Source of the DNA: Moniliella sp. 'wahieum'
Taxonomy: Eukaryota
Direction of reading: 5' to 3'
DNA length: 64,000 bases
Assembly: GCA_003971905.1 (NCBI GenBank)
Contig: RSEE01000036.1
Location: 372,001-436,000 of the forward strand
The notes beneath the pieces are model-generated. The model did not search any database, was not told where the DNA came from, and saw nothing but the letters and a program-made list of their open reading frames with translations. Shown piece by piece: positions 1,593 to 56,600 of the stretch. Numbering within the stretch: position 1 is the stretch's first letter; the number at the start of each line of letters is the position of its first letter. A program made the position numbers and the translations under genes.

Positions 1593-1611
1593 TGAGGCCT
1601 GAGGCCTGAGG
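1593..1611. repeat. Heptamer palindromic array (TGAGGCC)x2.7, core AGGCCT
   Basis: tgaggcctgaggcctgagg read directly; TGTGACATGTGA lies nearby at ~1675-1686. Confidence 0.8.
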
Positions 1612-2129
1612 ACGATCAGTGTCTGCTTGTCAAATGCGGCAAGGAAAAGGTCGACAAGTGGCATGTGATGCATGTGTGACATGTGATAAAGGACAGTATG
1701 TGACATTTGGGATACCAGGGTGAAAGGGTTCCAGCGTGGAACGGTGACTACGGTGGCGAAGGGGAACGGTGGCTAATAACGTGGGGACGCAGCTGCGTAC
1801 CGAGCCGGGGCGAAGCGCCAGCAGACCGGGCCGTAGACCCGGCGGTCTTCCTCGTCTGGGATATGGAACAACTAAAAGTTAAAAATGAGAAGATCAACTT
1901 CAGCGGGACAAACGGTGAAAATGGGGGACGGTAAGCTTTTGTCACATGTCATTGGAACCGGCGGGACGATAGAGTTTCATAACTATGACGTTGCTACACC
2001 CTTCCGACCCATTTGGCTCTGCCCCCCCTCCGATATTTTGGCATTGCTAGTATTGCCCGATGTCGATGAGATCTTGCAGATCATGAGAGGGAAATGAAGC
2101 GTGTATGTGAGATGGACTTGTGCCAGACG

Positions 2130-2172
2130 TGATGCATGATGTGCATGATGTGCATGATGTGCATGATGCATG
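2130..2172. repeat. ATGCAT-based array with 9-bp units (TGCATGATG)x~4
   Basis: tgatgcatgatgtgcatgatgtgcatgatgtgcatgatgcatg read directly. Confidence 0.85.
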
Positions 2173-2862
2173 GTGTAAGCAGAGGTTGCATAGGGAGGGG
2201 GGCATGCGAAATCCACACACCGGGTAACATCGCATGAGAGGGCTGTCGTGAGTTCGAAGAGACCAGGCCTCTTCCCCTCCGCGCGTATGAACATGGTACG
2301 GTGTATTATGAGCAGATTATCTGTGCGAAAATGGTTAATGGCCACGGACCTAAAGCTTAAAGAGGTAACCGCGTATGATTACGGCCGCAAAAATTATAGA
2401 ACGTGTCTAGACCCATAAGTCTCTTCATCAGTGCACGCGATTAACGAAGATGAACACTAATCTCTGTGCGTGGTCGGCACATGATATTGCAGGGAATAGA
2501 GATGTAAGCCAAGAATATAAAAAGGCGAGCTTGTGGTAGAATTAAGCACAGACTCTATTAGAGACCCTATAGGCCCTATGGCTGCTCCTACCCCTAAGCA
2601 GAACCCAATAAGCGGATCAGAGACATCGTCACCTGCGGGGTGGGGTGATCGATGATCACGGTGTCTGGCACAGCTGATGCGGACAAAGTGAATGTATCTC
2701 GTTGACACACAGTGGAACCGCCAACGAATGCTTAACGTTTTGCACACAGCGCAAACCCTTTTATCAAAAGGGGGCCGTCGGAAAACATGAAGCATCCACC
2801 TCCACCTGCACCGGTTACCTCTTTTCCCACCCTGCTGTTTCTGTCATCGTTACTTTCGGACG

Positions 2863-5731: not shown

Positions 5732-6798
5732 GACCGGAAACAACAGACACTACTGCGCTCAACAGGGTGGGGCGGGCGACACAATGAGATTAATGACGGA
5801 TGTTACGGATATGCTGATGTTGTCGTCCCCACGAAAATGGGAGTACAAATACCCGCCGGTTAAAGTAGGCGCAGGCCTGGGCGAAGTTTAACCGGGAGAA
5901 CGCGTATTATATCCGCACCTATGGCTGCGTGGTGTGGCACAGCGACATCGCCTCCTCGAGAAGGCGAGCTATGAAAAGAAGCCCCAACTCCCAGAAACTC
6001 ATCCTAGATCCGTGTTAATATCTAGCCCCTGGCAATGCCCACGCGGGGTGCACTGCCGCGCCAAACTGCCAAAGAGATACCACAAAGAATTAGCCGCGAA
6101 GAGGCACATCAGGGAGATGGACAACACACGTTCCCGCCATAATGTTCATTCGCATCTCTCGCATCCCGCTGGCGCTACATCCCATTTGGAAAATGAGAGT
6201 GGCGAGACCCAGCAGAACGCCCTGACTTGCTGGCGACGCCATTGCAATGGCCTTCTATAATTGGTGTTTGCGAGCGTCATCAGGAACGCGGTGCGAGCTC
6301 GCAAAGCTGGTGGAGGAAGTTGCCACAAATGATGTTGATGTGGATCCTCAGCAGGGGGCCGCGTCAATTGGTTTGTGAAGCTGAGGAGCTCTGGCGCTCG
6401 GTCTGGGCGCCAGACCACAGAGGTTCAGCTGGTTGAGTAGTGCGGGGACGGTGCAAAGCGGTGATGTCATACAAGGTCCTACACTGCCCCCAGCCAGCAG
6501 TGTGGCCGGAGCGGGTTTAGCAGCGTTAGACCCGCTGTCTCCGCCCTTGCCTGGGGCCAGTGTCGGTATGAGCCCGATGTGGCTGGGGGATTTGTCAGAC
6601 CGAATGTAATCGGCCACCGGCAGAAATAGGCTGCGTGCCGTGGTCCGCCCCCCCCGCGAGTGGCCCCAGTGCTTCCGCCTGCTGCCCCCAGACCGACTGC
6701 GGAAAAGATCAGAACGATCGTGCCGCGGGTATACTTGCTACTTAAAGCTTAACCCCCACCCACCGCTGCAAACCCCCTCCGGTTCCCAACCACCTATC

Positions 6799-8304: not shown

Positions 8305-9799
8305 AACCGACCACCGCAACTGCCCTCGTCCCTACCCCCGCAGCCTCCCCTCGCCGATGCGCACCTGCCTCTGTCGCCCACCACATGTAATGCTCCATTG
8401 TCTCCTTACTGCCACAACGTCCCTGAGGCCTGACTAATGACTCGCGCCCGATGGGGGGGTACGTATTACATCCATGTTCCCCAATCTTTTACGACGATAA
8501 TGCGAGGCGGGGGGCATGTGGTTGGGGCATGCCCCTATCCCATCGCCTGGGACAAGGACCGAAACTGTGATGAGGTGGATGAGGATAGTGGTAGTGTGCC
8601 CGAGTGAGATGGGCGTCATTGCGATGGAGACGGTGATGGTGCCTTGAGAGAGCAAGGTGTTGCAGTGAGATCGAGAGGTGAGTGTGCTGAGGGAAGGCGG
8701 ACACGAGTAGAGTGGTAAGGCCGGTAATCACCAACCCCCCCAGTACCGATTACCCGGTGCTAGTTGCTAGCTACCAGCTATCGGCCGCTGCGGCAAGCAC
8801 AACTGCCGTAGCAGGCCAGAGCTGGTATACTAGCGACGCCGACACGCCAGTCAAGTCCCAGGACGATGCACACTCTCTGTGCGCCGAGGGGGTTTGGGGG
8901 ACGCAGTAGCACGCAGTTGGCGCAGGTGGCGCACCCTCATCACGTGATGAACGATGCGACACTCCCCCTCTTCGGAAGAAAGGCCGCGTGGCGCAGCGGT
9001 GCAGGCTCCCTCCTCAGATCGCCAGTTGCGCGTGGCGGCGCACTGGGTCTGGCTGTGCCCCACTGCCTCTCCGGCACAGCCGAGCTCAAGACGGCCCATC
9101 CGGCATGCCGGGCCATCCGCACGCAGTAGAGCGTAGAACGGCGTAGTACGGCCTGGCGCATCCGGGCGCAGCAGTACACCGCCCCAGCTGTGGCGCCGTG
9201 CCCAAGGGCGACGATGGGCCAGCCGGCCAGCCGCGGCGGCCAGGAACAGGCACTGCGCCAGTCACATGTGAGACATGGGCGCCGCACCCCCCAATGGCTG
9301 GCGTTTTGATCCCTCGCGAGCACAAGGCACCGTCGGCACAGCGGCAGTGTCGCGTGCGACTGCGAGCACATACATATATCCACCTGCACACCGCCCCCCC
9401 GTTCTTGTCGGAGGGCCCTGGCTCTGCCGGGGGTGTTTTGGTGCGAGCTGGTCCGAGGTCTGTCCGGTCCAAGTGGGGACACAGCAAGCGCCATTCCCTC
9501 TCTCCGTACTCCTATGCCTTCCATAGCCTCTCCAACTAAAGCCAGGGGTGCTAGGGTTGGCGCCCTGTGCCTTCTTATGCCCTGCCCGCCCTTCCGAATC
9601 TGCCTGTTCCACCACCACCACCACCACCCTTCTGGCCCGCTCTGAGAGTAGCCCCCCCCCCCACCCTTCCATCCTCTCCGCCTACCCCCGTCCTGGTTGA
9701 CGTCTCTCCCCCCCTATCCCCTCTGCACCGATAATAGGAAAGCCCATCCAAAGCTCAACTGCAACACAAGTTTCTCCTCTTTCGTCTTCAACTCCAACA

Positions 9800-11041
9800 A
9801 TGAAATTCACCCTCTTCTTCCTCACCACCCTCCTTGCCCTGACTCAATCAGCGCAGGCGCTCCATCTCGGCCTTGCCTGGGCCGCCAACAACCAATGGGC
9901 CAATGAAATGGTCGGAAACCCATCCATCAACAGCTATCACCACTGGGAGGTGCGTTTTCTTTCTTTCTGTTTACTCTCTCCCTCACTAGCCGCTGACCGT
10001 AATCGATCATCCGTCGCACCGTAGATGGGCCACGTTCCCGAGTTGTCTCATGCTGGTCTCCAGTTTGTTCCCACTCGTTGGGGGTACAAGAAGAACCAAG
10101 ACTGGCCTCGTCTGCGTAGCCTGTTCCCCAAGTACCGCTACCCCTATCTTTTGGCCTACAACGAGCCCGATGTGTCGTCTCAGTCTGACTACTCGCCCCA
10201 GGACGCTGCGTCGGCTTTCCAAAGCGAGCTTGCTCCCTTGCGGCAGTACGGTACTCGGATCTCGTCGCCACAGATCTGCTGGAACGCCGACTGGCTTGAA
10301 CAGTTCACCCAGTCGCTCTCTAACCAAGGCGGATACTACGACTTTGTTGCTGCTCATTGTACGTCCTCTAATCCTCACGCTTCGTTTTATACATACCCAC
10401 GTCGGACTATTAACCTTTCTGTTTTCTTTCGCAGATTACGGAAGTTGGCAGTCGATTGACCAGCTTAAGAGCTATGTACAGGGCTCCACCAACGGTTTGG
10501 CAAGGACATTTGGATCACCGAATACGGTGTCACTTCCTCATCCAACCCGTCCACGGCCCAGGCCAAGCAATTCATGATTGACGCCACCAATTTCTTTGCC
10601 TCGACTGGCTATGTCAAGCGTGCCTACCCCTTTGGGATGTGGGCTACCCCTCCCGACAGCTTTGGCTCGGCACAGAACGCGGTCTTCTTCCAGGACGGTA
10701 GTCTGCGCTCGCTGGGCAAATATACCGTGCGTACTCGGCCTCGAAGCGTTCCCTTTCCGAGGCGGCGCCCCGTTCACGCGTCATGCGCAGGCACCATAGT
10801 CTCCTTGCCCGTCTTGCTCAACCCGACCCGAAGGATGGCGAGAACTGGGACAATGTGACAGTGACGAACCACTGCGATGAACAATGCCAAGGCCGTGCTC
10901 AATGGCTTGCCCACATCAAGGATGCTCCCGCTTTCAACGCATCGGCCGCGACCCGGCCCTGGACCGTGATTACAACCCACGGTGCCTATCGAGGCCTTTG
11001 TCGAGGAACCCATCCCCGAGTACGACGACAATGACTTTTAA
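9800..11041 (+). CDS. Secreted glycoside hydrolase family 128 (Asl1-like beta-1,3-glucanase)
   Basis: Signal peptide MKFTLFFLTTLLALTQSAQA; catalytic motifs LLAYNEPD and DIWITEYG; FVAAHYYG; YVKRAYPFG. Introns 9950-10024 and 10359-10434. The 3' end is uncertain because of frameshifts. Confidence 0.85.
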
Positions 11042-12323
11042 AGTCACTTGTCAGGATGCCCAATCCTTGGTTGCCATTTGCGCCTGTGTTACCTTTCAGT
11101 TTTACCCCGCCATGTCCCCCCTCTCATCTGCGCTTTCCCTCCTCCCCCCTCCCCTTTTTCTCTACCAGTTAGTTACGGTTCCACCTTCTGTTACGGGCCT
11201 TGTTATGGGTCACGCCCCCGTTCTCTTTTCTGTACCCGTTCTCTTTTTCTGTACCCGATCTTTCTTTCCTTGTTGTGCCGGTCCTCGTCCATTGTACCCC
11301 AACTGCGTTGGGCTGATGGGACGCAGGAGCGGAGCACGCCATGGCTCCTGGTGAGCCGGTGGACTTGGTGTGCTCCGTCACAAGCATCTCCCTCAATTAC
11401 ACTTCTTTCATGTTCCTTTGTCTTGTTGGGCTGTTAGTTACATCTCGTATCATGCGGGATAACTGCCTTTTGCGTTTTCGTCTTCTCCTGAGAGAAGTCT
11501 CCGAGGAAACCTGTCAGACCTGATGCAGAGATTGTGGCCCCTGCATGGTGTGTCTGCGCATTATTTTACTGTCTGCTCCTCTTGGCTTGGCTTGTTTCTG
11601 TTGCCGCGTTACTAGTTACTCTCCGTTTTTTGAATCTCGAAGGTCAGTCCGTCCAACCGTGGATCAGCAATCAGATCTTCATTGCGCCTTGATTACATTT
11701 AGTTAGTAATTGCTACAAACATCAGGATGTGCCCCTGTTATTCGTCAGGCTGAGAGGTCTGAAGAGGTGTCTGTGCACTCTACATGTACACCGATGCTCG
11801 TCTTTGCGTTCCATTTGTAACACAGCTGTGCTCACTTAGTTGAAGGTGGACGGCCCCGGTAACGGTGGATAAGGCTCCGACTGTTGAGAAATGTACTCGG
11901 TATATCCCTCTTCTTCGACCTGTCGTCCCGCACCTGGAACTGGATGCCTTGTGCATGGCGTGAGGCTAGTCAATGACTAATGATGGCAAACCGATTATTC
12001 ATTCAGGCCCCAGGATTGCCTGTGGTGGCGCTTGTTGGTGGGCGGGCGGGTAATTGCATCTGGATATTGATTCAGATGGGGTGAGCGGCGAGCGCACTGA
12101 GCAGTGATGCCGGGGATGGTGAACCCAGGGAGCAGGGCGGCAGAGATGGCAGAGAGGGGTGTCAATATTCAATCGATGACGTTGCATCAGATGCGGCCAC
12201 AATCTGAAAGGTGCAAACCCCCAGACTGGCGCCGTGCGGGGCGGCGGCTGCGGGTGCTAGGGTTGGCGTGCTGCGCATGCCTGATGGGCATCAAGGAGGC
12301 GGCTGCGTTGATGGCATCGATAG

Positions 12324-12348
12324 CTGAGATCTGAGATCAGAGATCTGA
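12324..12348. repeat. Heptamer palindromic array (CTGAGAT)x3.5, core AGATCT
   Basis: ctgagatctgagatcagagatctga, ~175 bp upstream of the bZIP ATG. Confidence 0.8.
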
Positions 12349-19366: not shown

Positions 19367-20014
19367 GGGGGCCGGGGGAGAGGTGTGGGAGAGGTGGTGG
19401 GAAATGGGGTGGAAGAGGTGGCAGGAGAGAAGTGGCAGGAGAGAGGTGACTAGTGATAGCAGAAGAGTGGCAAAAAAAAGGCAGGCGGCGGCGCAGAGGA
19501 GAAGCAGCGATGGAGGCGGCTGGGCTGAGGGGTGGGGGTGGGAGTGCCGGTGCGGTGTCCTACGGCGACTGGGGACGGAGCGGCGAGTGCGGAGGGAGGG
19601 CTACGGAGAGCAGCACCGAGTGAGCAGACGGGATGAAAGAGGAAACGGGCAAGGATGAATGACGCAACCGCGTCTCCAACCCAGCGCCTGCCGCGAGAAG
19701 AGCGCTGCGCAACTCACGAGCGAGCCCAACGCTGGGCCGCAACCCTCCCGCCACAGGCGCAGGACCGCACACGCAGCCCAGGCGCCGCGGCGCCAATACG
19801 CGGCGCCCAGCCGCTGCTGCTCTCCAGCAGACGCCCCAGCGCTCTGGGCTGCTTCTGGGTTGTGAGTCAGATTCCGATTCGGATCTTCCAGCTCGCTTTT
19901 GTTTTTTTCTCTTTTCAAAAGCCGCGGGCACGCCGAGGCCCTGGGCACTCCACGGGGGTTACGTGGGAGTAGCGACTACCGACTACGGCGCTCCGCCCGC
20001 ACTGGCACCCTGTG

Positions 20015-20066
20015 GGCCTCAGCCTCAGCGCTCACGCTCAGCCTCAGAGCCTCAGCGCCTCAGCCA
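20015..20066. repeat. Degenerate (CCTCAGC/GCTCAGC)-type array
   Basis: gcctcagcctcagcgctcacgctcagcctcagagcctcagcgcctcagcc. Confidence 0.7.
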
Positions 20067-20337: not shown

Positions 20338-20470
20338 ATAAGGCCCCACGCCTAACGCCTATAAGACCTACGGCCTAAGGCCCCTAAGGCTAAGGCCGGT
20401 ACTAGTAATCAAAGGCCTAAGATCTAAGACCAAAGGCCGATACAGGCAAGGCAAGGCCAAGGCACATAGG
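20338..20470. repeat. Degenerate (CCTAAGG/AAGGC) array
   Basis: taaggcc..cctaacgcctataagacctacggcctaaggcccctaaggctaaggcc..aaggcctaagatctaagacc.. Confidence 0.7.
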
Positions 20471-20582
20471 CTGGGCAAGCACACGGTAAGCGTGCGAGGC
20501 CGACTGGGCCTGTCGTCTCCACTCTCCCCGCGCCACAGCAGCCCAAGTCGGGCCGGACCAGCTCGAGGTGACCGGTGATGTG

Positions 20583-20602
20583 TGAGCGCTGAGCGCTGAG
20601 CG
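20583..20602. repeat. Heptamer palindromic array (TGAGCGC)x2.9, core AGCGCT
   Basis: tgagcgctgagcgctgagcg. Confidence 0.85.
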
Positions 20603-27067: not shown

Positions 27068-28794
<1,727 letters not shown>

Positions 28795-38489: not shown

Positions 38490-39969
38490 GTGAAAGACGA
38501 CTCACGGTAGTTTCGGGCTTGGTCTACTTGGTGGATCCGAGCGAGGAAGAGAAGCCTTTGCGCGTGATGCCGACGGCTGCACGCGTGGAAAGGCTGCGTA
38601 TACGCCGGCTGGAGGGTAGTAACGTGTCTGATAGACTCCGGGGCTGAGAGACGGGTAGATGCAGGGGAGCGGACAGACACTGCCAGGACTGAGGCATGGC
38701 AGTGGCTGTGAAAGGAATCCACGCGACATGCTGTGGTACAGAGAACCGACGCGGCTGACGGAAGGATTGCGTGACTGGGCAGATGGAAAGCTGGAGGACG
38801 AGGTTGGATGATGAAGATGATGCAGCTAAGTGGAGACGAGAGGTTGCCTGTATTACTGAATCAATTGGCTGGAAACGTTCAGGAGTTGGACAGGACGGAG
38901 GGTGGGATAAAGGATCCCCACCAATCAAGGATGCTGACTGTTGGTTGGCCCCTTTTTGGTAACCCCCTTCTGTCTAAGCCCCATCGCACTGGGATAGATG
39001 TTGACAGCGCGAAGCAGACGAAGCTGCTATAGAGAGCGAGTTCGGAGCACTCGCGATCCTATGGATCAGCTGCAATGCAGCCTTCAGACAAGGCGTGAAG
39101 GCAAAGTGGTGAGCCACAAGTCTTCAAGCAACATCTGAATTGAAGGGAAGGAGAGAGAGAGAGAGAAGGGAGATGAAGCGAGCAGGGCGCGCGCGCCCTG
39201 CGAGCGGAACTCTTCCGCCCGGTTAAGTGAGCGTCACCGATCCACGAGGGCCGTGCAAACGAGCCCCAGCACTACCCTCCAGCAGAAGCAAGCGAAGACT
39301 GCGAAGGCACTAAGAATGTCATCCGATAGCACTTCCTCGTCACATGTCACACCCTGTCACCCCATGTAAGAAAAGAAGTGGGGCGTGCTAGGGTTTTTCC
39401 AGGGTTGCTTATTTCGTCGCGACCTCAGAGGACCGAGATGTGGGCCCGCCTGAGAACTACACCTGTTTGTTCCCTGAAATTCCTTTCCCCTCCCTGTAGT
39501 ACTACTGTAATAGCAGGCTGAGCTTCTCCCAGCACCACAGAACAGACAGAAGTAGAAGAATGGAATAAGGCAGCATCTTCATTTAATAAGAGCACAGTCA
39601 ACGTGGTCAACGTACATTGTGGGGTCTGTCGGCGACAAAATTGCAAGCATTTTCAACTGCGAAGGGGGGGCCGACGCACAGTTCGCTTCACTGAGAGCCC
39701 ATCGGCTCCACACACGTTTTCATCACCAATAATGCAGCAGAGAATGGAGGGGGAGGGGGAGGGGTAAATTTTTATCAGACGGTAAGAAGGTCACGGGTGG
39801 GAGGATGAATCAAGATTTCCAAAGACCAACGAACTAGGGTGCAGCATGACAAGTGAAAGCAAAAAGTGGGCGGAAGAGGGCGAAACCACTCCACCAACGA
39901 GGGGAAAAGGGGGAAAGAGGGAAATGTAGAATAGAATGGTCCATTCAAGAGTGTGCAATGGTCCTATCC

Positions 39970-40975: not shown

Positions 40976-42750
40976 GGCGGGGGTGGGGGAGGGGTGGATG
41001 GGCTGCGGGCGAGCGGGGCAGAGGGGGCGGGTTATAAGGCGCCCCGTGCGGGCCAAGCGTTGGTTCGCAGGGCTGGAGCGCAGCAGGCTGAGCACCTGGG
41101 CAGCGCAAGCTGGGCGCTGGGGCGTGCTGGGGGCCTGCCCCAGCCGCAGACGCTGTTGCCCCGATGCAGCGGGTCAGACACGCAGGCACGGCGCAGGTGT
41201 CGTGCATACCAGTCTACCTCGGCTCAGCCACCAGGCCGGTCACCGGTCATGCGCCCGGCCTCAGGCATCGGGTGCGTAGCGCCTGCGTCGTCTTGCCCCT
41301 GCCGCGCTGTCGGCATGGGGGGCAGGCCAGCAGTGTGCTCAGGCCCGCCGTGTGCTCCGGCTGAGCGCTGGGCGGGGCACAGTCTGCGCAGCCGGGCGCA
41401 GGCAGGTCCGCCGCGCTGGCCTACGACGCGCTAAGCCGTAGCGCTAAACGCCCAACTGGGCCGGTCCTGGGCTGGCCTGTGCCGGCCCTGCCGGTGCGTG
41501 CGCTGTGGCTGAGGCCAGGTCCCACGCTCCCACCACCACAAGTCCGATTATGCGGTTATGCAACAGCAGCTGACGCGCCCACGAGCCAAGAGGGGACGGC
41601 TGCGTACCTCTCTGACGCACTTATGCTTCCCAGTGGCCAGCCCAGGCCAGCCACTCCGAACCACCCCCCGCGCCGCGCAGGAGCAGCCAGCGAGCCTGGC
41701 CAGTTTCGGCGCACATCGGCGGGCGGCCGCGCGCGGTTGGATCTGGCAAGGCTCCCTGGGCGTACCTTGTCTCAGATCTCCCAGCCCAAATCGCAGGGCC
41801 GCAGCGTCAGCGCTCAGCCACAGCGCTCACGCTGAGCTGGAGGCCTCCTGTCGCACTGCTGCTATCCCACACCCCTGCGCAATCCTGCGCAGAACAATGG
41901 TTGGATGCTGCCTCTGCATCATCCATCATCATCATCCATCGTGCATCAGCATCACATACAGTCGATGATTGGGAGGGACTGGAGGATCGAAAGACCCCCA
42001 ACCCTCGCTGTCCCATCCGTTCCTGTTGCCATCTTAGGCGGGTGCGTCGAGCCAGGTCAGCCTGAGGCTCAGGGCGTCAAACTCAAGCTTCAAGCTTCAA
42101 GTCCTCCATGCTCACTTTCAAATGGAACGGTGGCCACCATCCACCGGAGCATCAGTTGGACATGTGATGTTCTTTCGCAGAACTGTCCCGTGGCCAGCTA
42201 GTAGTCGTCGATCATCGGGGCACCGCCGCCTCCTGCTGCCAGGCGTCTGTAGCACCCCTAGCTCCAGCTTCAGCTGAAGCGTCTGCATCGGGCGATCATC
42301 GATCATCACACACGCGCTTCGGGGCAACCTACAGTGGCGTCGGGCCAGGGTGGCCAGGGTGGCCAGGGTGGGCACGCCTGGATGAATGGTTTCAGCACAG
42401 AGCCAGTGTTGCCGTGGCAAAGGATCGACTTGTGTGGAGTCTCACCCCCGGCCTCATTCATCCTGCGCCACCAGCACGGTCTCTAGTACGACAGTGCGAG
42501 TGCGAGTCGACCAACACCAGCACAGCAACACTCCCCGCCACGTGGCGGCATGTGTTGGCCCCGCTGGCGAAGCAGCCCGCTAGCGCTTTTCAGTAGTCAA
42601 CTAGATACTGATGATCGACGCTCGTTTGCCATTGCAGAGAGGGGAAGTTTGAAGCTTTGAAGCTCTTGAAGGTGTATGTCGACTGGAGCGTTTCCGTCTC
42701 CCATGTCCCCACTAATCACGCGCACCTGACGTGTCGTGAAAGCGAGGCAA

Positions 42751-42845
42751 TGCTAACCGCTAAGCATAGCGCTTAAGCTAAGCGCTTAGGCTAAGCGCTA
42801 ACCCGCTACCCGCTAACCTTACCGGTCACCGGTCACCGGTCACCG
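42751..42845. repeat. Composite array: degenerate GCTAAGC/AGCGCT units followed by (ACCGGTC)x3.5
   Basis: gctaaccgctaagcatagcgcttaagctaagcgcttaggctaagcgcta..ttaccggtcaccggtcaccggtcaccg. Confidence 0.85.
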
Positions 42846-43282
42846 TGCCACCCAGCATACTTAGTTGAGTACGTTGCGTATATCCTACCCAGTCTGAGAT
42901 CTGAGTGGGTGAACTCAGTGCGGCCCTCGGGGAGGCTGCGTCCCACACGGAATTGGGTAACTTCCCCGGGGACTGAGTGACTCGTTGAGGCGTGTTTGGC
43001 TGTTTGGGCACTGTGTTGGCCCATCCTGCAAGGTTCGGGCGATGGAGTGAGACCAAGTACCAAGGGAAGCAAAAGATGCACGGGTAGAGGGAAGGAGAAC
43101 AGGATCGGCGAAGGGCAGTGTGCCTGATTAGTTAAGAGGGCCGTGACACATCCATCGCTATTGATTTGAACGTTTGGAATTGAATCCACAACTCTAGTTG
43201 GCGGTTTTCCGTCGACAGGTCCCAAGCCACGTCCATTTCATTGACAGAACTCCCAAGCCCATATGCACCACGTCATTTCGCA

Positions 43283-43385
43283 TTATGCATTAACTTAACG
43301 TTTAACACGTTTAACGTCTAACGTCTAACCCTGAGCGCCTGAGCGCGCCCTGAGCTCAGGCCTGAGTCTCAGGCCTCAGGCCGAT
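43283..43385. repeat. Composite array: TTAACG(T) units followed by CCTGAG/CTCAGG units
   Basis: ttaacttaacgtttaacacgtttaacgtctaacgtctaaccctgagcgcctgagcgcgccctgagctcaggcctgagtctcaggcctcaggcc. Confidence 0.8.
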
Positions 43386-43773: not shown

Positions 43774-43822
43774 TTGAACGTGTTGAGCGTTGAACGTTGA
43801 ACGTTGACATGGTTAGTTGACA
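43774..43822. repeat. Heptamer array (GTTGAAC)n, core AACGTT
   Basis: gttgaacgtgttgagcgttgaacgttgaacgttgacat. Confidence 0.8.
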
Positions 43823-45658
43823 TGGAGGCGGAGACCGTGGTGAGGCGGTGAGGCCTGCCAGGCCTGAGGCCGGCCAAAAGGCCCGAGGCTCTGTTGTCCG
43901 AGACCCGATGGCCGGAGGCGTGAGGTTGGTGAGAAAGGAGTGTGTGTAACGCGGTGAACACCCCCTGTGGGTCCGTGACGAACTGGGAGTACTCAGCACA
44001 CTCAGCGCGACTCAGCCTGAGCGCTCAGGCGCTGACGTCACTGTATACACACTCCGTTATTTTCTCTTTCCCTCGTTTTGCACTACCAGCATGATGCATG
44101 ATGCACATCATGATGTATGCCTCTAACATGTTTTCTCTTCAAGCTGGCTTGTAGCTTCCACTGACTCATACACGCATACTCGATGCGCATTCTCCATCTT
44201 CAGCATTTCACAGCTCCCACAGCAATTTCACTCCGCGCACACTCTTCAAGTCAGCTACTCTTCATACTCAGCCTGGATTCATCATATTCATCACTCGTAC
44301 GCCGTGGTCGGTACAGTTCCTAGGACACACATAGTACCAGGAGATACCGGACAAAACATTGGCGACGGTGGGCACGGGCCAGCATCGCTGTAGGGTGTCA
44401 AAAATAATCTTTGATCGTCGTTGGGGAAGGGTACTATACACGGCGATTACCGCGCAGATGACCGAACTGTCCTCAGCTTTCGGAGAAGTTTCTCGTCCTT
44501 CTGCCCCACCTTCTCCTCCATCCCGATCCCGTTTACCTTGGCAAGATTCCCTGCGTGTACAGCGATGGTGGGAATGGAAAAGACTGCAAAAAACCCTCTC
44601 GCCTTGAATGTCTCTCTACTATACAATCAGATAACAAAGCCAACTTTTTCAGAAAAGTCTCAGTGTACATCTCTGTACCAGACAACGGACCGAGCACACC
44701 AACCGGGACACTGAGAAACGCTGGCTATACGCGGACTGTTCAACATCCTAATCGACGGGCGAGCCCCGCCCCCCCTACTATACAAAAGGACATGACGACG
44801 GATTATGCCCTGTCCAGGCCGTATGACGCTAGGTAAGTGATAACCGCCCTTTGCTCACTCCCCACCTTCGGGCGAGTGGGGACGGGCCAAGAAGCGGGTA
44901 ACGAGGGAGAAGAAGAAAAATGGTATGGCCTCCAGTTATGTATAGGGGGGCTGTAGAAGGGAGATAATGGATGGAGGGAATAATTTTATGTTTGAATACT
45001 TGTGGGTGGGACGAACGATGGGGGGAGGAAGCGGTGAAGCTGTGAATAAGAGGAAAAGAGGGTAGGAGACGAAGAAGATGAGCAGGGCATTGGGGACCGA
45101 CGGGAGAATGGATCAAAAGAAGGAGGATGGTCGATCAGGAATGCACGCGCACGCGCGCCACACCGCTAAGTTGCTTGGGGGTGGTAGTGGCCCGACCAGC
45201 GGGACCGTATGCGCAGTGAATGACAGCAGAATTGAAAGGAAGGGGGAACCAGTGTGGGTGTTTTTGTTCTTGGGGGGGGGGGGGGGGGGCAGGGGGAAAA
45301 AAAAAAAAAGAAAAAGGGTGCCAGCACTGAGACCGAGGCTAGTAGTAAGGCACAGACGAAGGCCAAAGAAGGGATGTGGTCGGAAGCAAAAGAAGGCAAC
45401 CAAGGGCGTAAGGCAGCGTAAAAGAATATTCGTAGGGCCAAAGCAAGGTGGGTATGCATACTGGCAGCGCAAAGCGTCGACAAGGAACGAACGCAAGATC
45501 TCGCCAGGGGGACAAACAAGAAATTTATAAAAGTCTTCACGGGGCCAACAAGGGCTGGTAGAAGAAAGGTGGATCCAGGTACGGAGGGGTCATGGGTCTT
45601 TGAGAGAATTGCGTTGGCAGTTTGGGAAGAATGCTTGGCGAATGCAAAGGGGTAAGAG

Positions 45659-47365: not shown

Positions 47366-47631
47366 AGGAGGGGGAGGGGGGGAGGGGAAGAAGGAGGAGG
47401 GAGGGGACGGGGAAGGGATATAATGGGGAGTTGGTGGTGCCTGTGGGTGTGGAGGTGGGTGGGCAGGTGGGTGGGCAGTGGGTGGGCATGTGGGGCGGTG
47501 GAGGCGGTGGTGGAGGTAAGTGGGTCGAGGGTAGCGGCAAAAAAAATGCAACCTGGAAAAATTGCGGAGCGCTGGCGACGGAATAAAGGTTGCTTCGTTA
47601 ATTTAATGGCGGGTGGGCAGTGGTTGCCAGG

Positions 47632-47720
47632 GTGACCGGTGACTAGCTAGTGACTGCCATCGGTCATGCATCATGCATCATGCATCATGCATCATGAACA
47701 TGGCCGTCGGATATCGATCG
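47632..47720. repeat. Composite array incl. (TCATGCA)x4.8 core ATGCAT, with GGTGACCGGTGAC and GACTAG..AGTGAC
   Basis: ggtgaccggtgactagctagtgac..tcatgcatcatgcatcatgcatcatgcatcatga (47664-47697), ~270-330 bp upstream of the Ecl1-like ATG. Confidence 0.9.
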
Positions 47721-47969: not shown

Positions 47970-48031
47970 AAAAAAAAAAAAAGCACCGATTGATTGATTG
48001 ATTACGCGTTACGCGTTACGCGCGTTACGCG
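47970..48031. repeat. A13 tract, (GATT)x4 and (TTACGCG)n array core ACGCGT
   Basis: aaaaaaaaaaaaa..gattgattgattgattacgcgttacgcgttacgcgcgttacgcg. Confidence 0.85.
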
Positions 48032-49338
48032 GTGTATGTTGACTGTGATCCTCCGGGTCCCAGTCGGTACACAGGTTCGCCTCGGTTCCATCGGCATCCA
48101 CGCTGCGGGTGTCCCAGCGTGTCACTGACCCTGTGCCCTCCATTTTCTCCTGTGTGACTCACTGCCCCTGTTTTTTTTGCCTAGTCCGGCCTCCTATAGA
48201 TGCCTCGATCTGTACCCCCAGACCCAACTGTGGCTCTAGTAATCCATCCCCTTCTCATCTTCTGCCTGTCCGGCTCCCTAGGCTAACAGTGTATGTAGCC
48301 GGGAGGCGCCCCGTCGTGTCTTTCCGAGCTTGCCATGTGGCAATGTGACGATGCGCAGGGAGCTTGCGCAGGCGTTCCCTTGAAGCTTGACTGTGGCCCA
48401 CGTTGTTGCGTGCATCGTGTTGGCAGCTACGATGCTGCGTGGGCAGCCTCTGCGATCGTCACGCGGCTCAATATTTTCCATCTGGCAGCGGAGAGGTAAC
48501 CGTACTGGTAGTACTCGGAGTACCCCGAGCCCATCGGGACCAAAGACGCACCAGGAGAGAGACGATGCTCGATCTGCGCTGACGCACGCTGACGTCGTAC
48601 TCAGTGATAAACAATGTGATGGTATGTTTTCGTGGCACTGCAACCTCTGCGAAGCACACAGCTATTAGGGCGCGGTGTGCGTGCGAGCTATTAATAGGAG
48701 GACGTGGGGTGGTTGCCACGCTGGATGCCGGCGTTCCGCGTGTAGCACACCCCCCACGGCTTGGCGGAAGGGAAAAAAAGAGGGATCCTACTGTGGTGCG
48801 GGCAGCCCCCAACTGCGTGTTGCCCCCTTCCACAAAAAGCAACAAACGCTGTATGATGGTGTGGCCGATATGCCGCAACGAAGTCTTCTAGTATACACCC
48901 AACAGCCTGTTTGTTCGAGCTCTTGTGGCTCACGCGCGCACCACAGCTCTCCTATTTCGCTCGCGCACCGCACAGCCACGAGTTTGGCGCACTTTCTTGC
49001 ACTGCCCCCCTCTTCTTTGGCCGCCCGATCCACACACGCATGCAAAACCTGCTACCTCATCACTAAAAGAGCACCCCAGACGGAGCAGCAAAAGCTCTCG
49101 AAGATGGAAAAGACCCCCAACAAACGCACACCTTTTCTCTCCACCCCGGGGATATACTAATCCGGTTGCATGTCAGCGCGTCAGCGCCTCTTGTGACCCT
49201 CTTTGTGCACCCTCGATATAAGCCTTACCTCTCTCCAAGATCTAAACGTTAAGCAGCTCCGGCTTGTTGTGCTTTCCCTTGAAGGAGGAGAGTCCGCTCA
49301 CGGGTTTTATCGAGCTTGAACACTGTTGATGAATCCGA

Positions 49339-49381: not shown

Positions 49382-51446
49382 GGCTCTCCATTGGGGCGTC
49401 ACCTCGCGTGACAAGGTTGCATATGCGCCGGGACGAGCAAGACTAGGCTGCCTGTAGATGCAGAACCTTGAAGGGTTGTTGGCTGGAAGTTTGACGCAGA
49501 CAACGACAGGGTCGGATAGGTCCTGTCACAGAACACTGAACTCTTGTTGGATCGCAGCGGCATCCGTACACGGAGACTGCAATCTGGAGGGAGATGGACG
49601 GCAAAGGATGCCTGGGCGGAGGGATTTGGCAATGTTGGGACCCGTGGTCCCGTACTTAGGCCAAGGTGCCTCATCACCCTTCACCCTGATTTGTCCTCCG
49701 AAGCCTCCACGTGTATACTCAGGCTTGTTTGAACCCCTGTCTCTAGGTGTGGCACAAGGCTTAGACCTTAACCACCACCATCGCGATTGCATTGCTCTAC
49801 ACTTCCAGAGGTTCTTCACCCAACCCCTTGGGTTCCTCCGGTCTTACAGGCAACCAAGAGATGGTCATTGAAGCAGGTCGGTGGGATTGTGCGTGAGCTA
49901 TATTCATATTAGGGAGTAACGCGGGTGTTGTCTGTGGTGGCTCAAGGACGGATATGTAAAAGGGGATGATTTTACAAATTGACCCGCTACTAGGGGAAGA
50001 AATAGAGAAGAAAGGCTATGCAGACACAGCGCTTTAACTGAAGTAACATACAGCGTGGAAAGAGGAAGGATTAAAGGCGAACGCGGCTCTCAAAGGAGCA
50101 CAAGCGTAGGGAAAGGTTCTCTAGCAACAGCAGTCCGTCTTTGCCCGTGACACAGTACGTTGAACCACTATGCGCCACACCACCGTCCCATTGCATACAT
50201 CTCCACAGAGGTTCTCCACTCGACGTTCAACTGAATCCTTCGGTTCCTCTCCTGTCTTACAACGCAAAATGATTAATGAGGCGTGTGGGTATTCCGCATG
50301 TAGTACGTACCCAGCAACGCGGCTCTCCGCGTCTCAGATCTCAGCTCCCTCACGTTTGAGACTCAGACCAGACCGCCATTAGCCGCGGCCGTCCACAATC
50401 CATCCCTCTCTACATCCGCCAACAGCGGACGAACCCCACTACCGCGCGCTTCTCAACGGTTTGGTCACAAATATATACAACGCTTCTTGGCACATGCGCT
50501 CATCCGTATCCATTCGCGCTGTACACTCGGTTTGGAAGCGAATGGCGGGGCCAGATGGTCCCGCCCTGTTGGCAACTCCACTGGTCTCACCTACTGGGGC
50601 GAGCATCATATGCAAGCAGCACGCGTTGGACGGTTGAGAGCGCGTGTGGATATAGTAGGCGTACTACTGCATTGACTTCGTCCCTCGCTGCAGCACGGGG
50701 AGGGCACTTGTATCGTTGTGGGGACTGGGAAGAACTGGCTGACGAAGAGGCGCAGGAAACACCGTTGTCTCTCTTTTGCTCTTTCCTTTCATCACCGTTG
50801 GTGGTTGGATCTCTCTCCCTAACACCTACCCCTCCCCTCGCGACCAGTGCCAGCGCAACGTTCACAAGCCCACGCGGGCGCGAGCGTCCGTCCCGCTCTC
50901 GGCCACTTGGTCACGTATCCCATCTACGTCCCATGCAGCATTTCCTGGAGCCACCAGGCCCGGGGGCGAGAGTTCACCGTTCACCAGCCCAAGTGTGTCG
51001 CCTTGATGTATACCCGCTCGGTACTCAGCCCAAGTGACACAGAGATCTTACTACGAGGGATGCCCCCTTTGGGGGCGATTGCGATTACAAGCCTGGGTAC
51101 TACATGGCTAATCGAAATTTCTGGTGCACAATCTTGTGGGCCTTGCCCACCTTGAATTTCGTACGTAGTCCTCACATATCTATTCGGAACCTTGTTACCG
51201 GCATTTTCGATTAGCTAGGTAGATGCACCAGTGTGGGGAGACGACGAATTCTCACGTTGGCTAGGAGAACTACGCGCCTCCCCCCTAACCCCCCCAGTCC
51301 CCTGCACACGACGTCGCATCCGTCTACGATGTGGTGCAGCAGCGCAGTCCAGAAGGAAGTGAGGGCATGCGAGAGGGGTGGATGGGCAAACGAGGCAAGA
51401 GAATATGATGGATTTTGTTCGTGCGCCCTAGAAGGGCGAGTTGGAA

Positions 51447-53013: not shown

Positions 53014-53622
53014 CGGTGGCGTGGGGGTGGCAGGCGGTAAGCTGGAAGCGAATGCCGCCGAGACGGGCGGAGGCGCAGGGGGGGTTGAGGATGCAAGCGA
53101 GCGTTGGGCGCAGTGGTCGGCTGAGCTGAGTGGCTCTCAGCCTCGTGCTGTACTGGTCAGGATGCTCATCAGTTGAGTTGAGGCAGTCAGCCCAGTCACT
53201 AGCCAGGCCTCAGGGCCAGGGCCGCAGGATAATCGATGATCGCTATGTAATTTCATCCCAGTGTCAGGCCTGCCTGTCGGGTGCCGCGAGGCGCGAGGAG
53301 CGAGCATCTCAGGCGCTGGGCCTGCGTGCTGCTCCGCCAGTCGCTGCTGGTGCGTGCACCCAGCCACCACGCCAGTCTAGCCACCCCCTTCCGATGGCAC
53401 CAGCCGATCCATCGCGCCCCCACTGCTGCTGTGCTGGGCCCACTCGTGTCCTGACGGAGACGCGGGGACAGACAGCCCCCGCGCCCAGCTGTCATGTATG
53501 TCACAAGTCGCATGCAGCGGGGGTGGGGCCAGTGCCGTGCCTGGCATCCTGAGATCGGCTTGCCCGCATAGGGACAGTCATATGCCCAAGCTGCCCCTGT
53601 GCTGCATCTTGCTGCATATTGC

Positions 53623-53649
53623 TCACGCGTCACGCGCGTCACGCGTCAC
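53623..53649. repeat. Heptamer array (TCACGCG)n, core ACGCGT/ACGCGCGT
   Basis: tcacgcgtcacgcgcgtcacgcgtcac. Confidence 0.85.
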
Positions 53650-56600
53650 TGCAGGCCAACCCCGCCGCGTGCAACTTGAACGTTCAATTCAATCCGTCAC
53701 GTACACGTGACCAGCGTTACCCAGCCCGCTCCCAGTCGGGGTTCCGCCAGCCCTGATGCACCTGATGGAGCAGGCAATAGTACTTGCTTCAAGCTAGGCT
53801 TCGACAGCAGACGCGGGGGTCATTGCCACACTACCCCCCCAGCGCCAATATCCTCATCATGTATAGCCCGTCTTTGTCTGCGATGGATAGACCGTTGACG
53901 CTCCGTAAAACTGCGGGTCCATCAGCATGGACTGTGCATATCGCAGCATGGAATGATTTGATGGGCGCGGTGGATGGTGAAAAGCTATTAATGAAGATGG
54001 CCAGGGCAGGTGTTGGAAAGCTATCCAAAACGACGACAGGAAACCAAAGCCACAAAACAGGGCCTCTTGACAAGGCTGCTGTTTCTGCATTCTCGATATA
54101 CAATGACTAGTGCGATAGCAGAAATCATGACAATGCCTTCTCCTTGTCCAATATTCATTCCTGGAGAGTCAAGGGCAGGAATATTCTCTAGCCACTGTAC
54201 TTCATGGTTCAATGCAATACATCATCAACTGTTGGCTCTCTGGTCTTCTATAAACATATTAATTCCCTCTGTCCCCCTTCCTCTCTCCCGATTATTTGTG
54301 TGGCGTCTCCACCTTGTCACCAACGTTGCGTGTTTGGCCCCCAGGCCGCTCCAGCCGACGCCTCAGACAAAATGCACTAAAATACAAACTGCAACTGGTG
54401 TTTTCTTGTCCTGAAGATGATCTCCTGTTGCCGTCTGCACCCAGCCAGTATTGTTGTTCCACTACCACAGTCTCTTGAGTAGGGGGGGGGTAGCATAACC
54501 GGTAAAGCCGGTATTAATTAACGTCCAACTCTCTCTTCACCATCACGGGTTTGATGCCTTCCGGCTCAGGTGCCCGTCACACGGCATGATACGCGTTTTT
54601 TTCCAAAAGTCCTCTTGTCCGGAGGTGGAGAAGGCGATTGTGCAGACATCGAGCACAGCTACGCCGATCGCGCGGGGGGGGATGCAGCATTTGAATGGGG
54701 CCGAGAGTGACCAAGTTTCAAGGAAACTCATCTATTTTTAAAGTGGAGTGTCGTTTGCTTTATACCATCACGCATCAGTAACAGTATGGTAGAAGAGAGC
54801 GTGATGAATATTGGAATGGATCACATGTAGCGCTCTCTTCTGTTTTGGTGTGGCATCCACAGCTGTTTGTCCATCCATGCCTTGAGCTCGGTAAATGATA
54901 TGAGTACTGCACGGGATCTTCGATCAATTTTTGCGCTCATCATCACAGTCTTTCGCCCCGCGTGTGCTTTTGTTAGTCCAGTTGCTCTTCCCAACAATTC
55001 ACTCGGTATGCGGCCTGCCGAGAATAGGCGAGAGGAGGCTGTTCAGCGGCACAAAACAGGAGAAATGCGCACCTAGTAGGCAGCATTACTTCTTCGACAA
55101 GATATCCAGTACGGTGCGCGGCGATATCAAAGCTAAAAAGCTTCAAGTTTTACATCATGGCCACACAGCTGTGCATCCCAACTGTTGCTGTCACTGCTGA
55201 CTGTTTACCTTCTTGTAGCTTGGACACAGAGGAGAAAACACAATCCATTATTGCAATAAGAATACGTGCACCTGTGAGTGTGGTGTAGGGTAGCATGCGG
55301 AACGCTGAACGCAGTGACCGATGGATAGTGGCCCAGGTACTGGTGGCACTTGAACTGGGTCGAATAGGATATCATTCGTTGCCTAACATCTTCATTCGCT
55401 GGTATAACAACAACCGTCTTCTTCAGGCTGGTGACGTACCCAACAGCTTCCTCGACGCCGCCGCCCACATCACGTTCTGTCACACATCACATGATCTGGT
55501 CCCCTCCATCACATATCATCACACCTGCTGCCGGTTCGACTGGAGGCAGGGGGACACTGAGGGCTTGGAGCTGCGGTCGAGGGGGCAGGATACTGGCGCT
55601 GCGCCTGAAGAGGGGATTCGGATCGATCGCAGCCGATCGGCAGCACGCTCACGCTACGCAAGGGGGAGGGGAGGGGAGGAGACTGCCCCGCTGCTGTGAA
55701 CAAGCGGCTGTGGGTAGGGTTGCTGCAAACGTACGTATCCCATCCAGGACCATCGATCTCATCGTCGTGCCTATCCTCCCGTACACGTTTGTGACCAGAT
55801 GCGACGCCTCAGGCCCCAGGCTTCGGGCCTCAGAGGGCCTCACAGAAGAGGCCCTGGGAGGAGGACGCAGGCCGCACACAGTAGAGGAGTTGCGTTCTAG
55901 GACCCTCCCTCGCCGGCACAGAGGCATGTGTGCTCCCACAGGCAAAGAGCCCCGATTGAGTCCGCAGCAGGCCACACCGTCGTGCCACAGGCCAATACGC
56001 CAGCGGCGGCTCCCTCGATCCGATTCCCATTCCATCGCAGCCGCCGATTGCCTCATCCGGCGTCTGGTGGATAATGGATGCGTTGCTGCCTTGGCACACA
56101 CTATGATAGCTTGTGCGCTTTCTTTGCTACCCTAACCCCTGCCCTGTTGTCCGTCGACTACTGGGTGCTTCCAGCCTCTCCCCCGCCCCGCACCACCACC
56201 TCAGCCTCTCCTCTCCTCTCTCTCAGCTTCTTCTCTCCTCCCTCTCAACAGCTGCTCCCTCCCTTCATCCCCCCTGGCTCCTCTGCCACCCACCTCCGCC
56301 TCTTCCCCCCCTCCATTCTGTTGGGTGCCGTGGCGCTAATCCGCTGAGCCTCTTCCTCACCACCTGTGTGCGCGGCAGTTGCGCCCATCACCGCAACAAC
56401 ACCTTCTACAGGCGGTTCTTTTCCTACTTTATCCCCTAACAAAGAGGGCATGGCAACAGTCTAGCTTCTCTTCTTGACCGCCACTCAGCTCCCAGGCGCC
56501 TCACACCGCACTATTCTGCTCGTCTCTGCTCGTGGCTGGCCGTCTCCGTCTACCGTCGTTTTCTCCTCACACTCCTACTCCGTACTCCCACGTGCTTTCT

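Follow-up and report, generated by a model that had tools for sequence, protein, structure and literature searches.

Palindromic heptamer arrays in a Moniliella contig as probable products of a recurrent 7-bp insertion at T-N-A

A 64-kb stretch of contig RSEE01000036.1 of Moniliella sp. 'wahieum', referred to here as the window (G+C content of about 59%, with nuclear fungal genes), contains short arrays of many different palindromic 7-bp units, together with single 12-mers that obey the same rule. The 12-mer reads TNAxy-y'x'-TNAxy: a five-base word starting with T-N-A stands twice, and the linker between the copies is the reverse complement of the word's last two bases. We think it probable that 12-mers and arrays derive from a recurrent, site-specific and templated insertion of 7 bp that is mutational and tolerated. 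The best reading of the loci is that they are the accumulated products of one stereotyped insertion mutation and not a designed element.

Structure, specificity and distribution of the 12-mer

An earlier note on this DNA had described arrays whose units consist of a palindromic hexamer of the form A....T plus one spacer base, and all 11 array cores that it named were recovered by TRF and exact-run scans, at or a few bases from where they had been placed; AGTACT, which it had called weak, occurs as single hexamers only. The arrays are head-to-tail exact copies of a short unit, and the multi-copy ones are 100% identical. The enrichment of this class over other heptamer arrays, which the note had proposed to test, is borne out in the window: among exact period-7 runs of at least 17 bp, 10 of the 12 units are a 6-bp palindrome plus one base, all ten with an A....T outer pair, against a null of 10.7% (the share of such units among random units of the same composition). 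Among runs of at least 14 bp the palindromic class makes up 21/40, with A....T as the outer pair in 19 of these 21, and its share grows with array length, from 11/28 at 14 to 16 bp to 10/12 at 17 bp and above. A....T hexamers likewise exceed a background of 40 dinucleotide shuffles, which also serves for the cores and 12-mers below (252 versus 160 ± 12.5), while hexamers with C, G or T outer pairs stay at or below the shuffle level. Pairs of identical A-N4-T hexamers separated by one base occur at 14 positions, and the corresponding pairs with outer C, G or T at 0 each.

The periodicity of T-N-A, also part of the earlier description, amounts to a lag-7 autocorrelation of 2.04 times expectation, with an excess at lags 9, 14 and 21 too, versus 1.24 for A-N-T, 1.09 for C-N-G and 0.99 for G-N-C at lag 7. 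Units of a palindrome plus one base are not enriched at period 5 (23/88 versus a null of 28.6%), and periods 6 and 8 have no comparable palindrome excess; the two period-9 cases are ACGCGCGT plus one base and adjoin ACGCGT arrays. Palindromes overall are only mildly enriched (even, arms of at least 5, 85 versus 65.8; odd, 110 versus 74.5), so that the signal is a specific class and not the outcome of a palindrome-rich genome, an explanation that we dropped.

The minimal core searched for was T-N-A-x-y-y'-x'-T-N-A with an identical N on both sides. Such cores occupy 67 positions in 55 loci, versus a mean of 1.8 and a maximum of 4 in the shuffles, and the 12-mers number 40 versus 0.2. Two T-N-A are present in 47/55 loci; the eight multi-copy arrays hold three (six arrays) or five (two arrays), and 13 of the 16 possible A-N4-T cores are in use. 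Beyond the core, period-7 identity of at least 2 nt is found on one side only in 40/55 loci, with two-sided extension of this length in 7 and none in 8 (binomial, 1e-25); by chance, 56% of loci should show no extension at all on either side. Written as nucleotides of identity to the left and right, (0,2) is the exact pattern of 12 loci and (2,0) that of 11, together 23/55 versus about 7% expected. Since identity extends on one side, the elementary object is the asymmetric 12-mer or its reverse complement. On both strands, the linker is the reverse complement of the last two bases of the 5-mer in 78 of the 99 distance-7 cases. The elementary product repeats 5 nt and adds 2 inverted nt, and in this it differs from a tandem duplication of a pre-existing unit. 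As judged from the sequence, removal of seven bases would restore a unique and palindrome-free ancestor, pq-TNAxy-rs.

The central base N is the same in both copies at 67 positions, complemented at 6 and another base at 6, which indicates that T-N-A is copied directly. When T-N-A flanks an A....T hexamer on just one side, the counts are those of chance (32 and 36), and the entire hexamer excess falls in the class with T-N-A on both sides and the same N; since such half-products are not in excess, the product is made in one step. Isolated y'x'TNAxy 7-mers, considered as seeds of the arrays, were dropped (205 versus 177 ± 15). A 7-bp target duplication of a palindromic 7-mer requires two-sided identity, present in 7/55 loci, and was rejected here; it may fit five (2,2) cases found in other fungi. 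A wider rule, a 4-bp palindrome plus any three bases, fits 5 of the 19 non-palindromic arrays by eye, which is the chance level, and was also abandoned.

Beside the arrays lie irregularly spaced clusters of perfect palindromes of 12 to 19 bp in which N is flipped, made of CTSAG or CTWAG blocks (36572-36623, 42267-42280, 42781-42799, 43349-43376 and, with 16 bp, 44015-44030). Possibly the same process gave rise to them, either as fold-back variants or through secondary rearrangement.

The signature is narrow in every dimension that we varied. When 12-mers built from any five-base word W, the reverse complement of its bases 4 and 5, and W again are sorted by bases 1 and 3 of the word, the (T,A) class has 40 members on the + strand versus 17 for the nine other listed classes together; (A,T) has one member, and (C,G) and (G,C) are not among the classes listed. 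Of the 16 combinations of turn length (0 to 3) and inverted-copy length (1 to 4), only turn 1 with copy 2 stands out, with T/A closure in 78/115 cases on both strands. Among same-N T-N-A pairs at distances of 4 to 12, palindromic linkers are in excess at distance 7 alone (67/112), and the mirror product, with the inverted bases taken from the T-N-A side, is at background level. The inverted copy is almost exclusively 2 nt long and the scars are uniform, with the two orientations equally frequent (12 versus 11). The use of N follows supply (G or C in 48/62, versus 73% across all T-N-A), and all x and y occur. The flank bias is mild and symmetric: position -1 is G in 28/62 and C in 14/62, x is C in 21/62 and G in 12/62, and the base after y is C in 30/62. 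For three long arrays, the predicted single-strand structure is a hairpin that has N.N mismatches and a triloop of T-N-A, with energies between -7.3 and -8.2 kcal/mol (z-scores -1.3, -2.2 and -4.3), whereas a single 12-mer has no comparable fold (-2.3 kcal/mol, z -0.2).

The loci avoid coding DNA, as the earlier note had remarked by eye: none of the 55 lies within the 5,874 coding nt that align to Pfam domains, against an expectation of 5.05, and codon-periodicity scores at the loci are low. They are clustered in spacers (1499-2657, 20024-20602, 26377-26721, 42083-44105 and 47631-48031) at a density of roughly one per kilobase of spacer. The annotated genes between 25 and 36 kb share one orientation, head to tail, and every spacer is both 5' and 3' of genes. 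No interspersed repeat or terminal inverted repeat element was found in the window.

For comparison, 80 metagenome-contig loci from other fungi (777 kb) were retrieved with a Sec61 fragment. Among their period-7 arrays, 13/122 (10.7%) have the palindrome-plus-one unit, a share equal to the null, and the density of such arrays is about 20-fold below that of the window; the signature is not general to fungi. The T/A class of 12-mers is still the commonest of the 16 in these contigs (26 versus 6 to 14). Their cores comprise 32 distinct ones; in 14 of them the identity goes on for 2 nt or more to the left or right, and five of these 14 are clean tandem palindromic 7-mers (GTTSAAC, CTTCAAG and the like). 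The Sec61 proteins of the contigs with T/A cores are closest to those of Russulales, Boletales or Cyphobasidiales. The process or a cousin of it may be active at a low level in other basidiomycetes. Exact tandem palindromic 7-mers centred on T-S-A were noted in the basidiomycete contigs L076 (1098-1118 and 9974-9987), L080 (3305-3320), L025 (7881-7894) and L010 (1182-1195), with GTTGAAC in three copies and CTTCAAG and GTTCAAC in two, and also in L063, L065 and L070, which are one sequence; in these cases identity runs on both sides, unlike in most loci of the window.

A putative T-N-A-directed activity and its relatives

In the linker, x and y are arbitrary yet always complementary to the word, and must therefore be copied, not recognised by a protein. 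The obligatory T and A, the free N, the equal orientations and the mildly symmetric flanks together argue for a two-fold symmetric agent acting on T-N-A, and the fixed lengths of 3, 2 and 2 argue for enzyme geometry rather than variable end processing. Stereotyped signatures usually trace to one enzyme, those of Top1, Top2, RAG and polymerase theta being each tied to one.

The target would be 5'-T-N-A-x-y-3' on either strand, with any N, x and y, and the gain of 7 bp would turn it into TNAxy/y'x'/TNAxy. This can be described as a direct duplication of T-N-A, with the same N, whose copies are split by a 4-bp palindrome made from the flanking bases of one side or, equivalently, as a 5-bp direct duplication with two 'P-type' inverted nucleotides between the copies. 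In our working model, a two-fold symmetric, T-N-A-directed nuclease or DDE-transposase-type activity, transposon-encoded or domesticated, would break the site; one end would then be converted into a covalent fold-back (hairpin) two bases past T-N-A; opening of the fold-back 5' of the T on the return strand would restore exactly two bases in inverted form; and fill-in of the staggered break would duplicate T-N-A-x-y. The break, the hairpin and the enzyme, as well as the respective shares of iteration and slippage in array growth, we infer from the structure of the products, and we put forward this nuclease-plus-fold-back route with slightly less than even confidence; the overall explanation, a blend of the insertion and the route, we judge evenly balanced between right and wrong. 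Two duplex steps, y/y' and x'/T, are new in the product. By analogy with P nucleotides, the first may be the trace of a covalent fold-back of the end, and the second would be a 3' end joined 5' of T, which is the cut and join point of the transposases of the TNA-targeting PIF/Harbinger superfamily (PMC4482050, PMC4561436).

Each product would contain two fresh targets, and iteration would lead to (TNAxy y'x')n TNAxy. The presence of two substrates per product would explain why arrays start with T-N-A and end with xy, as at 1593, 42083, 47664, 20583 and 48002; of the remaining multi-copy arrays, one extends on the left (43788) and two have (0,0) and (5,3) boundaries (33495 and 42821). From about three units upward, the T-N-A triloop hairpin would allow ordinary slippage to add or remove units, and slips of a CG or TG dinucleotide in the core would give the 9-bp variants. 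Selection would purge the insertions from coding sequence, and the all-frame stop codons and the resemblance to restriction sites would be side effects.

The earlier note had argued that ordinary slippage does not predict the shared grammar, a view reinforced by the repetition of 5 nt with 2 inverted nt in the T/A class only. Its first candidate cause, fold-back or template-switch synthesis at breaks made at TNA sites, comes near the required anatomy (TNAxy, the reverse complement of xy, TNAxy) and survives to that extent; on the other hand, what arises, in a single step, is a 12-mer without symmetry and not a symmetric array, half-products are not in excess, and a pure fold-back would flip the N, which is in fact kept. 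Variants of the chemistry were also examined. If a Piggy-Bac-like hairpin were opened at its 5' side, TNA y'x' TNA xy should be seen at distance 5; this fits 3/30 cases, a chance result, and P nucleotides from both ends predict distance 9, which was not found. Double Top1 cleavage, Top2 or Spo11 fill-in and concatenation of excised TNA fragments were discarded, as none of their predicted products (flipped N, direct duplications of 2 to 4 bp, or a linker equal to the left flank) is enriched.

Who would supply the activity is a more doubtful matter. We tentatively propose, while leaning towards disbelief, that a basidiomycete lineage, probably within Ustilaginomycotina, has an endogenous T-N-A-specific, hairpin-forming nuclease that writes exact +7 insertions into non-coding DNA and leaves no element behind; its most likely identity would be a DDE transposase, whether domesticated or still mobile. 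PIF/Harbinger (PHIS) is the sole eukaryotic DDE group that we found to target T-N-A with any N. Within it, NuwaII has C/TNA/G target-site duplications (TSDs), and the group is reported in two basidiomycetes (PMC4482050). The likeness lies in a two-fold symmetric target with a 3-bp T-N-A (or TWA) duplication, matched here by obligatory T and A, a free and copied N and equal orientations, while the difference lies in excision, which is precise there, as opposed to the 7-bp insertions seen here.

Several points weigh against the proposal that the loci were written by such an activity. Excision of characterised PIF/Harbinger elements was precise in 109/110 events (PMC2836001), and these elements leave T-S-D 5' overhangs, not hairpins (PMC2836001, PMC4561436). 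Their targets are extended palindromes (C/TNA/G for NuwaII, 9 to 15 bp for PIF/Harbinger), whereas the flanks here lean towards G..C. The hairpin footprints of hAT elements and V(D)J joining are heterogeneous, in contrast to the uniform product of the window. No transposase domain was detected among the 241 open reading frames (ORFs) of at least 110 aa at E ≤ 1e-5. We could write no short, wholly conventional reaction path to the product; each one tried needs two transesterifications or an unexplained fixed 2-nt offset. The empty state pq-TNAxy-rs is itself deduced from the product, and the 1-nt indels of the assembly leave exact copy numbers and some irregular spacings uncertain.

Each of the nearest known concepts shares one feature with the loci and fails at least one feature tested. 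P nucleotides, or hairpin-type excision footprints, appear as a concept in the background section of PMC4561436. V(D)J coding joints and the footprints of hAT, Transib and Mutator-like elements resemble the loci in having an inverted copy of an end beside a direct duplication. Two is the usual P-nucleotide length where the nick in a hairpin lies two bases off the tip. Those footprints are heterogeneous, with P nucleotides from either flank, whereas here they are always 2 nt, on one side and away from T-N-A; they have duplications of 8, 5 or 9 bp and symmetric target preferences, whereas here the site is set by T-N-A; and they come from elements, of which the window has none. In comparison with hAT, Transib or MULE footprints, the duplication here is 5 bp (TNAxy) or 3 bp (TNA), and the 5-bp consensus is asymmetric, which is unexpected of a symmetric transpososome. 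Tc1/mariner footprints, which the background section of PMC4561436 describes as a TSD, the terminal bases of the transposon from both ends and a second TSD, have the same layout of duplication, short palindromic filler and duplication; their filler, however, is the transposon terminus and constant per family, whereas here it consists of neighbouring genomic bases (40/55) in 13 forms. CNG triplet repeats, of the form (palindrome+1)n, share the array grammar and fold as single strands with N.N mismatches and a triloop, and the insertions of synthesis-dependent microhomology-mediated end joining or polymerase theta are likewise templated from the flank, both inverted and direct. None of these three has a T-N-A rule or fixed lengths, and the period-5 analogues are not enriched in the window.

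Competing explanations

A replication error that requires no nuclease is unlikely, although by our reasoning it yields the exact product, with N copied directly and the extension on one side. A nascent strand would fray, snap back by T:A pairing around a one-base turn and copy two of its own bases, after which synthesis would resume at the fray point, a path of the quasi-palindrome or template-switch type; arrays would then grow by hairpin-assisted slippage like CNG repeats, hairpin-forming sequences whose grammar is the same (even palindrome + 1)n. No transposon is needed, in agreement with the window, and the three long arrays form T-N-A triloop hairpins. However, pairing predicts that A-N-T, C-N-G and G-N-C closures should be at least equally good, and (A,T) has 1 member versus 40 for (T,A). 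A one-nucleotide turn is also sterically poor, a fray length of 5 nt is unexplained, and inverted copies of 1, 3 or 4 nt show no enrichment. Finally, replication is universal, yet the other fungal loci sampled are at the null, with the class about 20-fold sparser.

Still less probable are classical excision footprints, according to which PHIS/NuwaII-like elements with a 3-bp TNA TSD, or Transib-like elements with a 5-bp TSD, came and left, the residue being both duplications plus terminal transposon bases or P nucleotides. The product has the Tc1/mariner-type form when read as TSD, 4-nt palindrome and TSD, and the hairpin-type form when read as a 5-bp duplication with 2 P nucleotides; the loci are clustered in spacers, and TNA-TSD elements are reported in basidiomycetes (PMC4482050; background of PMC4561436). 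Against this, the palindrome equals the local flank in 40/55 loci and takes 13 forms, so that it is no transposon terminus, and a symmetric 5-bp target cannot carry T at position 1 and A at position 3 without a mirror requirement, while the mirror product is at background. PIF-type excision is precise (PMC2836001), the scars are uniform and not heterogeneous, and 55 visits in 64 kb would have left no element copy in the window.

We consider cis-regulatory arrays very unlikely. In this case, a dimeric protein (e.g., a bZIP factor with TGA/TTA half-sites) or a reader of DNA shape would select dyad-symmetric T-N-A periodicity in promoters, much as in the second candidate of the earlier note, a reader of periodic half-sites. 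The loci are intergenic, the one at 30908 lying 67 bp upstream of the Sec61 ATG and the one at 12324 about 190 bp upstream of the bZIP ORF, and TGAC, TTAC and ATGA presumably resemble bZIP half-sites. The idea nevertheless receives no support from the loci: 47/55 are single 12-mers with arbitrary cores (13/16 in use), T-N-A being the sole constant; their boundaries fit an insertion event and not a binding site; and no protein can require arbitrary x and y to be complementary. The complete identity of the multi-copy arrays also suggests that they are young, which counts against selection for binding.

Just as improbable are ordinary microsatellites with a survivorship bias, in which any 7-bp duplication arises and the hairpin-forming units expand and persist; this would agree with the moderate stability of the three long-array folds and with the rise of the palindrome share with array length, but the skew is already present at the first duplication and is confined to T/A closure, period 7 and the one-sided 5+2 structure, which is not a tandem duplication of any ancestral 7-mer, and palindromic units of period 5 are not enriched. 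Least credible is a sequencing or assembly artefact, the 12-mers being systematic miscalls or polishing errors of an error-prone long-read assembly: the many 1-nt indels in conserved genes, among them about six frameshifts in 1.4 kb of Sec61 versus intact proteins that are 99% identical, speak for it, whereas random indels would break exact arrays, the T/A traces in independent basidiomycete contigs and their five clean tandem cases argue against an artefact private to this assembly, and we know of no error mode that adds 7 nt of direct and inverted local copy at T-N-A only and in non-coding DNA only.

Implications, loci and gene context

Neither a TNA +7 signature nor palindromic heptamer arrays in the nuclear DNA of fungi turned up in a full-text literature search. 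Footprint-like templated insertion and the birth of microsatellites are known kinds of event; there is a fair chance that an undescribed enzyme activity stands behind the signature. If the loci are real in reads, they would represent a mutational process with single-base rules, namely a T-N-A target, a gain of 7 bp and two bases copied backwards, and small insertions in this genome's non-coding DNA appear to be mostly of this kind. Sequence-diverse microsatellites would then be born in one step and not from chance proto-repeats, and the loci would offer a natural assay of break and hairpin processing in a basidiomycete, each product recreating its substrate. The arrays are likely to be hypervariable markers, and they plant palindromes and stop codons beside genes. 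Should the endogenous nuclease exist, it would define a new mutational signature and a new way for microsatellites to arise de novo, and would steadily supply promoters and untranslated regions with short palindromes and stop codons; the weaker traces in Russulales- and Boletales-like contigs would point to a wider basidiomycete trait.

Table 1. Probable insertion loci from the same-N core scan, and genes identified in the window. L and R, nucleotides of period-7 identity beyond the core on the left and right; genes are from a Pfam domain scan of ORFs.
Positions	Strand	Feature	Core	L,R	Remark
1499..1510	+	single event	ACATGT	0,2
1593..1611	+	array, 3 T-N-A	AGGCCT	0,2
1675..1686	-	single event	ACATGT	2,0
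1940..1951	-	single event	ACATGT	2,0
2130..2168	+	single event (2130-2141)	ATGCAT	0,2	then period-9 array TGCATGATG x4 (2133-2168), the 7-unit plus a TG dinucleotide
2351..2362	+	single event	AAGCTT	0,2
2646..2657	+	single event	ATCGAT	0,2
6610-8281	+	cytochrome b2
6741..6752	-	single event	AAGCTT	2,0
8422..8433	-	single event	AGGCCT	2,0
10025-10855	+	GH catalytic-core protein
10774..10783	.	10-mer core alone	ACGCGT	0,0
11608..11620	+	single event	ACTAGT	1,2
12162..12173	+	single event	AATATT	0,2
12324..12338	+	single event	AGATCT	1,4	degenerate third unit
12335-13531	+	bZIP factor			ORF ATG at 12524
15742-17948	-	PI-PLC
19446..19456	.	10-mer core	ACTAGT	1,0
20024..20034	.	10-mer core	AGCGCT	1,0	within degenerate CTCAG cluster 20016-20064
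20417..20429	+	single event	AGATCT	1,2	ends degenerate CTAAG cluster 20328-20430
20567..20578	-	single event	ACCGGT	2,0
20583..20602	+	array, 3 T-N-A	AGCGCT	0,3
21281..21292	-	single event	AACGTT	2,0
22142..22152	.	10-mer core	AGCGCT	0,1
24052..24063	-	single event	ATCGAT	2,0
about 25000	-	CRAL/TRIO protein
26377..26394	.	array, ~2.6 units	ACATGT	2,6
26421..26436	.	event	ATCGAT	4,2
26698..26709	+	single event	ACATGT	0,2
26710..26721	-	single event	ATGCAT	2,0	abuts 26698..26709
27071-28519	-	F1 ATP synthase subunit
29337..29351	.	event	ACGCGT	2,3	between Sec61 3' end and ATP synthase gene
29422-30859	-	Sec61 alpha			ATG at 30841
30908..30921	.	event	ACTAGT	2,2
31038..31048	.	10-mer core	ACATGT	0,1
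32627-33160	-	epoxide hydrolase
33478..33490	-	single event	ATGCAT	3,0
33495..33525	.	array, 5 T-N-A	AAGCTT	0,0	in degenerate period-7 tract 33472-33531
34802-35699	-	protein kinase
36386..36398	+	single event	AACGTT	1,2	then degenerate TGA-period-7 and CTSAG clusters to 36623
39339..39351	+	single event	ACATGT	1,2
41236..41249	-	event	ACCGGT	4,0
41807..41818	+	single event	AGCGCT	0,2
42083..42101	+	array, 3 T-N-A	AAGCTT	0,2
42293..42307	.	event	ATCGAT	3,2
42790..42801	-	single event	AGCGCT	2,0	inside palindrome-rich tract 42752-42815
42821..42845	.	array, 3 T-N-A	ACCGGT	5,3	TTA first unit at 42819
42893..42905	-	single event	AGATCT	2,1
43280..43292	-	single event	ATGCAT	3,0
43295..43306	+	single event	AACGTT	0,2	start of degenerate tract 43295-43382
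43368..43382	+	event	AGGCCT	1,4	beside flipped-N palindromes 43349-43376
43788..43807	-	array, 3 T-N-A	AACGTT	3,0
44089..44105	.	event	ATGCAT	3,4	flipped-N palindrome at 44015-44030
47631..47643	-	single event	ACCGGT	2,1
47664..47696	+	array, 5 T-N-A	ATGCAT	0,2	longest exact array
48002..48031	+	array, 3 T-N-A (48002-48022)	ACGCGT	0,4	then ACGCGCGT+T period-9 variant to 48031
48379..48390	-	single event	AAGCTT	2,0
49243..49252	.	10-mer core	AACGTT	0,0
50268..50279	-	single event	ATTAAT	2,0
50332..50344	-	single event	AGATCT	2,1
53623..53649	.	two overlapping events	ACGCGT		linked via ACGCGCGT unit
54496..54505	.	10-mer core	ACCGGT	0,0
59864..59875	+	single event	ATCGAT	0,2

The closest named relatives of the Sec61 protein are those of Testicularia, Ustilago and Kalmanozyma (92% identity) and of Jaminaea, Meira and Malassezia (90%), all Ustilaginomycotina, the proteins of Puccinia and Tulasnella being likewise at 90%; the sole match of the bZIP protein is a Malassezia furfur protein with 32% identity. 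On these matches the organism is a basidiomycete, probably of the Ustilaginomycotina. Two Sec61 proteins from read assemblies are 99% identical to a 149-aa query fragment and intact at 478 aa, whereas alignment with a metatranscript contig reveals about six frame changes within the 1.4 kb of the gene. Such 1-nt indels, and not introns, interrupt conserved single-copy genes (Sec61, the FMN dehydrogenase at 7028-8281 and the ATP synthase at 27071-28519), and their frequency points to an unpolished long-read assembly, pseudogenes being less likely. At E ≤ 1e-5, none of the 91 ORFs towards the end of the window matched a Pfam family, and a tRNA scan of the whole window found none.

Other features were noted in passing. 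The longest inverted repeat of the window is a 68-nt pair (23856-23923 and 49771-49838) with 78% complementarity, 25.8 kb apart. A run of 18 G, a few bases and a run of about 19 A follow one another at 45272-45315. Strand asymmetry is strong locally, with GC skews of +0.29 (18000-20000), +0.22 (46000-48000) and -0.29 (56000-58000), and these three stretches hold purine- or pyrimidine-rich low-complexity repeats such as GGAGGAGGATGA and CTCTCCTCCCT. An 18-nt exact direct repeat, TGAGAGACGGGTAGATGC, stands at 16914-16931 and 38645-38662, 21.7 kb apart, with a third copy (83%) at 47054-47071.

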